A DNA stretch of 64,000 nt from Escherichia coli (GCF_044324785.1 NZ_CP172129.1), one strand, 5' to 3'; numbered from the stretch's first letter, positions 53,248 through 55,697 are shown. The notes: generated by a model not told the origin, from the sequence alone. Made by a program: numbers and translations.

Positions 53248-53777
53248 TCACTCACTATGATATAAAAATGGAGATGCAAAAACTAAAGGAGGTACTCTCT
53301 GTAGAGGGTGTTAATATCCCATCATTATTACAAGTCATAAAGCCGGGAACTTATGTGTTTTTATGGGTTTTATTATGGCCAACTTTTCTGCGTTTAGTAT
53401 CGGTTAAAAGTGATGTCAGGGATGTTGGCTTTGATATATGTGCTAGTGGAATGATGGGGTTCCTGCTTTTTGTGGCTATTACAAATGGAATGATGTTATA
53501 CCTTGCGATTCCTGATAGTTTCAGAAAGGATTCAAAAATAATAAATTTTATGTATTCTAAGAGTAAGACATATATTTTGTTGTTTTTGATTGTTTTTTCT
53601 ATGGTTTCGTTTATGCATTCTATCTTATATGTTTTTGCACTAATGATTACATTCATATTATTTTTCTTGGTGTATACCATAGATATAAATCGTTATAATC
53701 TCTCAGCTATAGCCTCAGTAATAGGACTGTTCAAAAAAGAGTCTGTTAGGGAAGGTGCGAACAAGTTCCTGATATGA
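53244..53777 (+). CDS. traS: Entry exclusion protein TraS; last codons read into the IS5-family element
   Basis: 177-aa very hydrophobic, AT-rich ORF at the traS position; C-terminal ...[10 protein letters not shown] is encoded by the IS left end, native end would be ...ESVS. Confidence 0.75.
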
Positions 53778-54944
53778 GATCATCATATTCATCCGGAGCG
53801 CATCCCAGAGGGACATCATGAGCCATCAACTCACCTTCGCCGATAGTGAATTCAGCACTAAGCGCCGTCAGACCCGAAAAGAGATTTTCCTCTCCCGCAT
53901 GGAGCAGATTCTGCCATGGCAGAATATGACCGCTGTCATCGAGCCGTTTTATCCCAAGGCGGGCAATGGCCGACGGCCCTATCCGCTGGAGACCATGCTG
54001 CGTATTCACTGCATGCAGCATTGGTACAACCTGAGCGACGGTGCCATGGAAGATGCCCTGTACGAAATCGCCTCCATGCGCCTGTTTGCCCGATTATCCC
54101 TGGATAGCGCCCTGCCGGATCGCACCACCATCATGAATTTCCGCCACCTGCTCGAGCAGCATCAACTGGCCCGTCAATTGTTCAAGACCATCAATCGCTG
54201 GCTGGCCGAAGCAGGCGTCATGATGACCCAAGGCACTTTGGTGGATGCCACCATCATTGAGGCACCCAGCTCTACCAAGAACAAAGAGCAGCAACGCGAT
54301 CCGGAGATGCATCAGACCAAGAAAGGCAATCAGTGGCACTTTGGCATGAAGGCCCACATTGGTGTCGATGCCAAGAGTGGCCTGACCCACAGCCTAGTCA
54401 CCACCGCGGCCAACGAGCATGACCTCAATCAGCTGGGTAATCTGCTTCATGGTGAGGAGCAATTTGTCTCAGCCGATGCCGGCTACCAAGGAGCGCCACA
54501 GCGCGAGGAGCTGGCCGAGGTGGATGTGGACTGGCTGATCGCCGAGCGTCCCGGCAAGGTAAAAACCTTGAAGCAGCATCCGCGCAAGAACAAAACGGCC
54601 ATCAACATCGAATACATGAAAGCCAGCATCCGTGCCAGGGTGGAGCACCCGTTTCGCATCATCAAGCGGCAGTTCGGCTTCGTGAAAGCCAGATACAAGG
54701 GGCTGCTGAAAAACGATAACCAACTGGCGATGTTATTCACCCTGGCCAACCTGTTTCGGGTGGACCAAATGATACGTCAGGGGAGAGATCTCAGTAAAAA
54801 CCGGAAATAACGCCAGAAATGGTGGAAAAAATAGCCTAAATAGGCTGATTCGATGTGTTTGCGGGAAAAAAATCGGCCCAGATCCGCGAAATTTTAATCA
54901 GCGAGTCTGCTTGGGAAGAAATGACCTGCTTATTCGCACCTTCC
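53750..54944. mobile_element. IS5-family insertion sequence (~1195 bp) with 4-bp TTAG target duplication
   Basis: Terminal repeats ggaaggtgcgaacaag... and ...cttattcgcaccttcc, flanked on both sides by ttag; left boundary may be off by 1 bp. Confidence 0.85.
53818..54810 (+). CDS. IS5-family DDE transposase
   Basis: 330-aa [40 protein letters not shown]..., near-identical to recalled IS5 InsH except the C-terminal tail. Confidence 0.85.
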
Positions 54945-54965
54945 TTAGTTAAAAGGATATTTTGG

Positions 54966-55697
54966 ATGAAAACAAAAAAATTGATGATGGTTGCACTGGT
55001 CAGTTCCACTCTGGCCCTTTCAGGGTGTGGTGCGATGAGCACAGCAATCAAGAAGCGTAACCTTGAGGTGAAGACTCAGATGAGTGAGACCATCTGGCTT
55101 GAACCCGCCAGCGAACGCACGGTATTTCTGCAGATCAAAAACACGTCTGATAAAGACATGAGTGGGCTGCAGGGCAAAATTGCTGATGCTGTGAAAGCAA
55201 AAGGATATCAGGTGGTGACTTCTCCGGATAAAGCCTACTACTGGATTCAGGCGAATGTGCTGAAGGCCGATAAGATGGATCTGCGGGAGTCTCAGGGATG
55301 GCTGAACCGTGGTTATGAGGGCGCAGCAGTTGGTGCAGCGTTAGGTGCCGGTATCACCGGATATAATTCCAGTTCTGCCGGTGCCACACTCGGTGTGGGC
55401 CTTGCTGCCGGTCTGGTGGGTATGGCTGCAGATGCGATGGTGGAAGATGTGAACTATACCATGATCACGGATGTGCAGATTGCAGAGCGTACTAAGGCAA
55501 CGGTGACAACGGATAATGTTGCCGCCCTGCGTCAGGGCACATCAGGTGCGAAAATTCAGACCAGTACTGAAACAGGTAACCAGCATAAATACCAGACCCG
55601 TGTGGTCTCAAATGCGAACAAGGTTAACCTGAAATTTGAAGAGGCGAAGCCTGTTCTCGAAGACCAGCTGGCCAAATCAATCGCAAATATTCTCTGA
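54966..55697 (+). CDS. traT: Surface exclusion / serum resistance lipoprotein TraT
   Basis: ORF 54855..55697, start set at [35 protein letters not shown] (lipobox LSGC). Confidence 0.9.

Follow-up and report, generated by a model that had tools for sequence, protein, structure and literature searches.

What does an insertion sequence do to an IncF conjugation operon when it lands at the very point where one exclusion gene ends and the next begins? The question is raised by a 64,000-nucleotide stretch of Escherichia coli DNA (GCF_044324785.1, NZ_CP172129.1; the whole stretch is referred to as the window, and all positions are counted from its first letter), in which an IS5-family insertion sequence (IS) separates traS from traT within the transfer region of a plasmid. 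The original prediction, made from the sequence alone, had described this insertion and had pointed to possible effects on exclusion, on serum resistance and on the expression of traT, traD and traI through polarity. Taking structure, read-through and a near-neutral outcome as one joint judgement, we conclude with high confidence that the locus records a genuine, single, recent and simple transposition in which a mobile ISKpn26-type element entered a TTAG at the 3′ terminus of traS on a conjugative IncF-type plasmid, and that the functional effect of the event would probably be mild.

Structure of the insertion and the empty site

Direct reading of the sequence bore out an IS5-family element of 1195 bp, and the GGAAGGTGCG termini and flanking TTAG duplication that had been claimed for it were both present on re-inspection (Table 1). 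The inverted repeats of the element are 16 bp long and match at 15 of the 16 positions, and the terminal-repeat 16-mer occurs exactly twice in the window, as compared to 0.08 occurrences expected by chance. Membership of the IS5 family is indicated by the DDE type of the transposase, by inverted repeats of ~16 bp on an element of ~1.2 kb and by the 4-bp Py-T-A-Pu duplication. The TTAG on either side is the product of the usual 4-bp staggered target cut made by the DDE transposase. A single pair of ends was found in the window, so that the element has no further copy there, and a composite transposon bounded by two IS copies was rejected for this reason.

Table 1. Coordinates of the insertion, the adjoining genes and the associated signals, in window numbering
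Feature	Position	Strand	Details
Chimeric traS	53244-53777	+	177 amino acids; native residues 1-168, then REGANKFLI, most of which is encoded by the left end of the element
Left target-site duplication	53746-53749		TTAG (Py-T-A-Pu site)
ISKpn26-type IS5-family insertion sequence	53750-54944	+	1195 bp; transposase gene co-oriented with the tra operon
Left terminal inverted repeat	53750-53765	+	GGAAGGTGCGAACAAG
Putative transposase promoter PIS	53755-53783	+	-35 GTGCGA (53755-53760), 17-nt spacer, -10 GATCAT (53778-53783)
Transposase open reading frame	53818-54810	+	330 amino acids; DUF772 at residues 51-124 and DDE_Tnp_1 at 138-312 (Pfam)
1-nt (T) deletion relative to ISKpn26 and IS5	54780-54781	+	T present in all four comparators
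Predicted hairpin followed by AUUUUAAUC	54858-54889 (run to 54898)	+	3′ untranslated part of the element
Right terminal inverted repeat	54929-54944	-	GGAAGGTGCGAATAAG (reverse complement)
Predicted small hairpin	54942-54957	+	UCCUU (54942-54946, end of the element plus duplication) paired with the traT Shine-Dalgarno AAGGA; -4.1 kcal/mol
Right target-site duplication	54945-54948		TTAG
traT	54966-55697	+	Intact, 243 amino acids; starts 21 nt past the element

We rebuilt the empty site in silico by deleting the element together with one TTAG, and used the resulting 802-bp junction as a query. The comparison with uninterrupted plasmids that the original prediction had proposed proved unambiguous: the rebuilt traS-traT junction aligns at 100% identity, as a single piece, with many IncF plasmids whose annotation has traS and traT as adjacent genes, and in these plasmids, which number in the hundreds, the empty junction carries a single TTAG. 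At a coverage of at least 80%, the rebuilt junction was matched by 972 PLSDB plasmids and 923 complete E. coli RefSeq records. The same picture holds over a longer distance. For at least 14 plasmids, the 20-kb region from 44000 to 64000 aligns at 100.0% identity as two segments, with a matched span of 18,802 bp that corresponds to 20,001 - 1,199, that is, to the loss of the element and one copy of the duplication (1195 + 4). Since a gap of 1199 bp is all that interrupts this 20-kb match, the insertion was precise and recent, and the backbone is otherwise unaltered. Furthermore, a Logan short-read contig (SRR31073010), found by exact look-up of the chimeric TraS protein, is identical to window positions 50244-53775 and thus takes in just the first 26 nt of the element, which is the behaviour expected at a point where a repeat breaks a short-read assembly. 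No observation contradicting the structural interpretation was found.

At the gene level, the element does sit at the traS-traT junction, as originally described, but it lies within the last sense codon of traS rather than between the two genes. Native TraS, encoded by 510 bp in NZ_CP023363.1, is 169 amino acids long and ends in KKESVS; the traS stop codon precedes the traT ATG by 13 nt. With the last codon split by the insertion, the final Ser is lost and REGANKFLI gained, and translation of the junction agreed with the earlier statement that this codon is disrupted and a new C-terminal tail acquired. The chimeric protein scores 255.6 bits against NCBIfam NF010304 (cut-off 173), residues 1-168 aligning to positions 1-169 of the 171-position model, and has been deposited as WP_395765698.1 / XJR04852.1 with the plain annotation TraS.

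On the other side, the element was correctly placed immediately upstream of traT, the ATG of which is at 54966; the distance of 22 bp given for it is a difference between coordinates, and the actual gap is 21 nt, the duplicated TTAG included. The traT gene is 100% identical to that of uninterrupted plasmids, its product matches NCBIfam NF010291 over 1-243 of 243 (545 bits, cut-off 445), and both the Shine-Dalgarno sequence AAGGA (54953-54957) and the ATG are unaltered relative to NZ_CP023363.1. All upstream promoters are now 1.2 kb more distant from traT. Elsewhere in the operon, traG, traD and traI are full-length, and the remaining transfer region does not differ from that of conjugative-typed plasmids. 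An additional open frame (54855-55697, 280 amino acids) starts at a GTG in the right end of the element and runs through the duplication, in frame, into traT. Its translation would place 37 extra residues in front of the TraT lipoprotein signal peptide; this product is hypothetical, and there is no sign of its use.

Identity of the element and choice of target

The original prediction had raised the possibility that the element is ISKpn26-like, and this guess was right. In alignments, the 1195-bp element is 99.6% identical to two 1196-bp ISKpn26 copies, these being copies that RefSeq labels ISKpn26 family and not the ISfinder reference sequence, as compared to 91.3% identity to one IS5 copy. 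The ISfinder naming convention sets the limit at no less than 95% nucleotide identity. By this measure of nucleotide identity the element is ISKpn26, not IS5 proper. The full 1195 bp is also present, at 100% identity, at many unrelated E. coli chromosomal and plasmid sites, where it is annotated as IS5-like, ISKpn26 family; the neighbours of these identical copies include psuG-like, pagP, espL1 and fimbrial chaperone genes, among others.

With ISKpn26 the element shares the same 16-bp inverted repeats, the same single DDE transposase and the same 4-bp Py-T-A-Pu duplications, which read CTAG, TTAG or CTAA in all comparators whose insertion is intact. In family, length class, terminal repeats, target preference and transposase promoter hexamers it also agrees with IS5 of E. 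coli K-12, from which it differs in nucleotides that cluster at element positions 35-64 and in the last ~150 bp. Because of these nucleotide differences, the regulation published for IS5, namely that of the IHF and bend region and the read-through, may not transfer exactly to the present element.

The transposase scores 367.1 bits against NCBIfam NF033581 (IS5 family transposase, cut-off 140) over residues 24-313, and its residues 1-321 are 99% identical to the 326-residue ISKpn26 transposase and 98% identical to that of IS5. The suspicion that its tail would be unlike that of IS5 held, with the addition that the tail is also unlike that of standard ISKpn26, owing to a 1-nt deletion. The element is 1195 bp long rather than 1196 bp because one T is missing after 54780; the resulting frameshift after residue 321 replaces the usual last five residues with nine (GRDLSKNRK), a change that falls outside the catalytic DDE domain. 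The exact deletion variant is found in 67 of the 2732 E. coli records that match this stretch, and represents a minority sublineage. Since identical copies occupy many loci, the sequence comparison indicates that this 1195-bp sublineage still moves, whether alone or with help in trans from standard copies. Annotation of the variant is in conflict: PGAP calls an identical DNA copy (NZ_CP042969.1) a ‘frameshifted’ pseudogene, yet the 330-residue product is deposited as a normal multispecies ISKpn26-family protein, recorded on 730 contigs.

The target itself is of a kind that IS5 is known to use: IS5 has the target consensus Py-T-A-Pu, its recorded targets include TTAG, and it favours AT-rich, destabilised DNA (PMC5493358). 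With a G+C content of 32%, traS contains 15.7 Py-T-A-Pu sites per kb, versus 5.0 per kb in the whole window and 1.7-4.1 per kb in traG, traT, traD and traI. The native part of the gene (53244-53749) forms a sharp AT-rich island, with 25-37% G+C in 200-bp windows versus ~50% in its neighbours. The gene is, in addition, dispensable for transfer. In public data, three of the eight Py-T-A-Pu sites of this traS allele have been hit: CTAA at 53283 in CP057180, since rearranged, CTAG at 53443 in p1_21366, and TTAG at 53746 in the plasmid described here.

In p1_21366 (NZ_JBYMFK010000002.1), ISKpn26 has entered the same traS allele in the same orientation, at the CTAG corresponding to window positions 53443-53446, and splits traS after ~66 codons; this copy is 1196 bp long and has the standard tail. 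The record also carries ISEc23 (IS66 family) between traT and traD (5594-8010), the exclusion region thus being interrupted twice. The IS in CP057180.1 (3003-4197) is a hybrid, ISKpn26-like up to the equivalent of ~54761 and IS5-like throughout its final part, from the equivalent of 54794. No target duplication surrounds it: CAAG stands on the left, where the flank is unrelated, and CTAA on the right, where the flank is traS from 53283 onwards. As judged from its sequence, this arrangement points to recombination between IS5 and ISKpn26, in which the start of traS and the upstream tra genes would have been lost.

A traS::IS5 insertion has been published for the pUTI89-like plasmid pCE2050_A, where it occurs in a few closely related isolates and was proposed as a trackable marker (PMC9429958). 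Like the present case, it involves an IS5-family element on an IncF virulence plasmid, with a 4-bp duplication and in co-orientation with tra. Unlike the present case, it involves IS5 proper and another traS allele, and it lies mid-gene and truncates traS, whereas here only the last traS codon is hit and the element abuts traT. ISKpn26 is also found in a further traS allele, on a Citrobacter plasmid. Hits in traS are rare: of the roughly one thousand plasmids that carry this allele, no more than a handful are affected; all traS-insertion comparators are co-oriented with tra, but these form a biased sample, the search having joined pieces on one strand only.

Probable transcription across the element and expression of traT

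How, then, is traT transcribed? A consensus scan of the + strand yielded no outward-facing or hybrid sigma-70 promoter at the right end of the element. Candidates picked by eye, such as TTCGCA-17-GATATT, were rejected, since they would place the start of transcription at or past the traT ATG. As 21 nt is too short for a promoter and no convincing outward promoter was found, traT would be transcribed by read-through across the element. The sources of this read-through would be PY, any promoter in the traS region and the weak transposase promoter, with transcripts from PY and the traS region entering the element from the left. Because the transposase gene is co-oriented with tra, part of the transcription would be expected to continue into traT, traD and traI.

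The transposase promoter PIS was assigned by identity with the mapped ins5A promoter of IS5, which by itself is nearly silent without an upstream activator (PMC11894529). In IS5 inserted in the same orientation, transcripts from the transposase promoter cross the entire element and drive the downstream fucAO operon, and the activity of the promoter alone exceeds that of the full construct by only ~15% (PMC11894529). Consistent with passage of transcripts, a terminator scan flagged no canonical or strong terminator on the + strand of the element. A search of Rfam gave no RNA family match within or adjoining it. In a related IncF plasmid, RNA-seq values, in reads per kilobase per million, are 231 for traS and 282 for traT, compared to 56 for traG, 6 for traH and 7 for traD (PMC6286996), a profile that, if it can be carried over, points to local promoters at or before traS and to termination after traT. 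Single deletions in F reduce the exclusion index from ~474 to 28 (traT) or 3 (traS), with only minor effects on fitness (PMC12445648). The most likely outcome of the insertion is that TraS function is kept and TraT lowered but present, with no more than partial polarity on traD and traI. The event would most likely have been neutral or mildly deleterious, and is probably confined to a single isolate lineage.

Several points weigh against so mild an effect. First, a nine-residue C-terminal tail may matter to a small membrane protein such as TraS. Second, a native traT promoter within this traS allele is hypothetical: the sole consensus match (TTTGCA-16-TATTAT, 53634-53661) is only a lead, being no better than chance in a scan that returned 3 sites versus 3.9 expected. 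Third, the evidence for read-through comes from IS5, and the last ~150 bp of ISKpn26 differ from it at many positions, so that the analogy may be looser than it appears. In particular, the predicted 3′ hairpin of ISKpn26 and the short U run that follows it, which are missing from IS5, might act as a weak terminator; the folding energy of the hairpin is -9.4 kcal/mol, versus -1.7 kcal/mol in the aligned IS5 segment. Finally, pairing of the traT Shine-Dalgarno sequence in the small hairpin predicted at the right-hand junction could lower TraT beyond expectation, the predicted unpaired probability of the Shine-Dalgarno bases being 0.00-0.12 with the element versus 0.23-0.93 at the native junction.

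On a different reading, the element would be strongly polar and would sever traT, traD and traI from PY and the traS-region promoters, leaving little TraT and poor or no transfer. The authors who described pCE2050_A proposed that its traS::IS5 insertion could abolish conjugation (PMC9429958). In the present plasmid, traT lies only 21 nt past the element with no native promoter left beside it, the ISKpn26 hairpin and the AUUUUAAUC after it are not found in IS5, the traT Shine-Dalgarno sequence is predicted to be paired, and restriction to one lineage would fit a transfer defect. Against this, traD and traI are described in the older F literature as having extra internal promoters, the other tra genes are 100% identical to those of conjugative-typed plasmids, and the scan gave no canonical + strand terminator. 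Moreover, co-oriented IS5 passes transcripts almost undiminished (PMC11894529). We therefore regard strong polarity as unlikely and, arguing from read-through in IS5, as somewhat less likely than the original prediction implied.

Alternatively, the insertion could be adaptive and regulatory, with the AT-rich end of traS and the silent PIS together forming a fusion promoter, or with H-NS silencing being relieved. If this were true, traT and possibly traD and traI would be freed from TraJ/FinOP control, and serum resistance or surface exclusion would be raised. There is precedent in IS5, which at fucAO combines with the host DNA upstream of it into a functional fusion promoter, and which also activates bgl, glpFK and flhDC (PMC11894529, PMC5493358); the PIS hexamers are conserved in the present element, and an A-rich tract lies directly upstream of the -35 hexamer. 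However, the fucAO fusion promoter requires a Crp site at -61.5, and none was spotted by eye at the end of traS, where no scan was made. PIS alone is essentially inactive (PMC11894529), and traS and traT are already among the top-expressed tra genes in a related IncF plasmid (PMC6286996). Nor is there a selection signal, the insertion being found in one lineage only and the other traS insertions lying at different sites. An adaptive regulatory role is thus improbable, and we find very doubtful the broader proposition that a fusion promoter uncouples traT from TraJ/FinOP and that traS is a preferred landing pad, through which IS5-family elements repeatedly rewire IncF exclusion genes.

That the junction is an assembly artefact, or an IS-mediated recombination joint of two plasmids instead of a simple insertion, is highly improbable and, on the sequence comparisons, excluded for practical purposes: multi-copy ISs are often sites of misassembly and IS-mediated rearrangement, and the CP057180 comparator, with its CAAG/CTAA flanks and foreign left flank, is such a case, but here the TTAG copies match, both flanks align with uninterrupted plasmids collinearly and at 100% identity, the window holds a single copy of the element, and a separately built short-read contig shares the left junction.

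Distribution, plasmid context and significance

The traS-ISKpn26 junction of this plasmid was found in none of the records in PLSDB or among the complete E. coli RefSeq genomes, where the near-matches are insertions elsewhere in traS. The chimeric TraS is known from one 144,444-bp NCBI plasmid contig and from one Logan contig that is reported for two samples. As far as these records go, the insertion arose recently, is confined to a single isolate lineage and gives no indication of having spread or been selected.

Elsewhere in the window, positions 3966-12000 hold a five-gene siderophore cluster sized like iucABCD-iutA (595, 315, 580, 425 and 733 amino acids), the last gene of which encodes a TonB-dependent siderophore receptor; the protein-family scan covered two of these five genes. 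On this basis the plasmid resembles the IncF virulence plasmids of aerobactin type. The partition genes sopA and sopB (equivalog matches) are located at 13513-15659, and an IS110-family transposase gene lies on the minus strand at 17767-18738. Rfam matches above the gathering scores were obtained for AS-pc01 (21106-21207), the sok antitoxin RNA (28423-28595), the traJ 5′ untranslated region with FinP opposite (32565-32676), AS-traG (51141-51226) and AS-traI (60952-61028), and FinP is intact. In the 252-bp spacer between traT and traD (55698-55949), a G+C-rich inverted repeat (GGAGGC...GCCTCC, ~55709-55728) lies just past the traT stop codon, where a terminator after traT would be expected. The consensus scan did not flag this repeat because no T run follows it.

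Collectively, these results describe a known insertion sequence acting in a known manner, and IS5-family insertions in IncF traS have been published before. The plasmid is also a natural construct in which to examine the dependence of traT, traD and traI on upstream transcription, and to compare read-through in ISKpn26 with that in IS5, although the answers would hardly alter current understanding. For the IS5 family, the insertion adds another instance of one of its elements entering an AT-rich, dispensable IncF exclusion gene. For the plasmid, the traS-ISKpn26 junction, with its product WP_395765698.1, provides a unique and trackable signature of one lineage.

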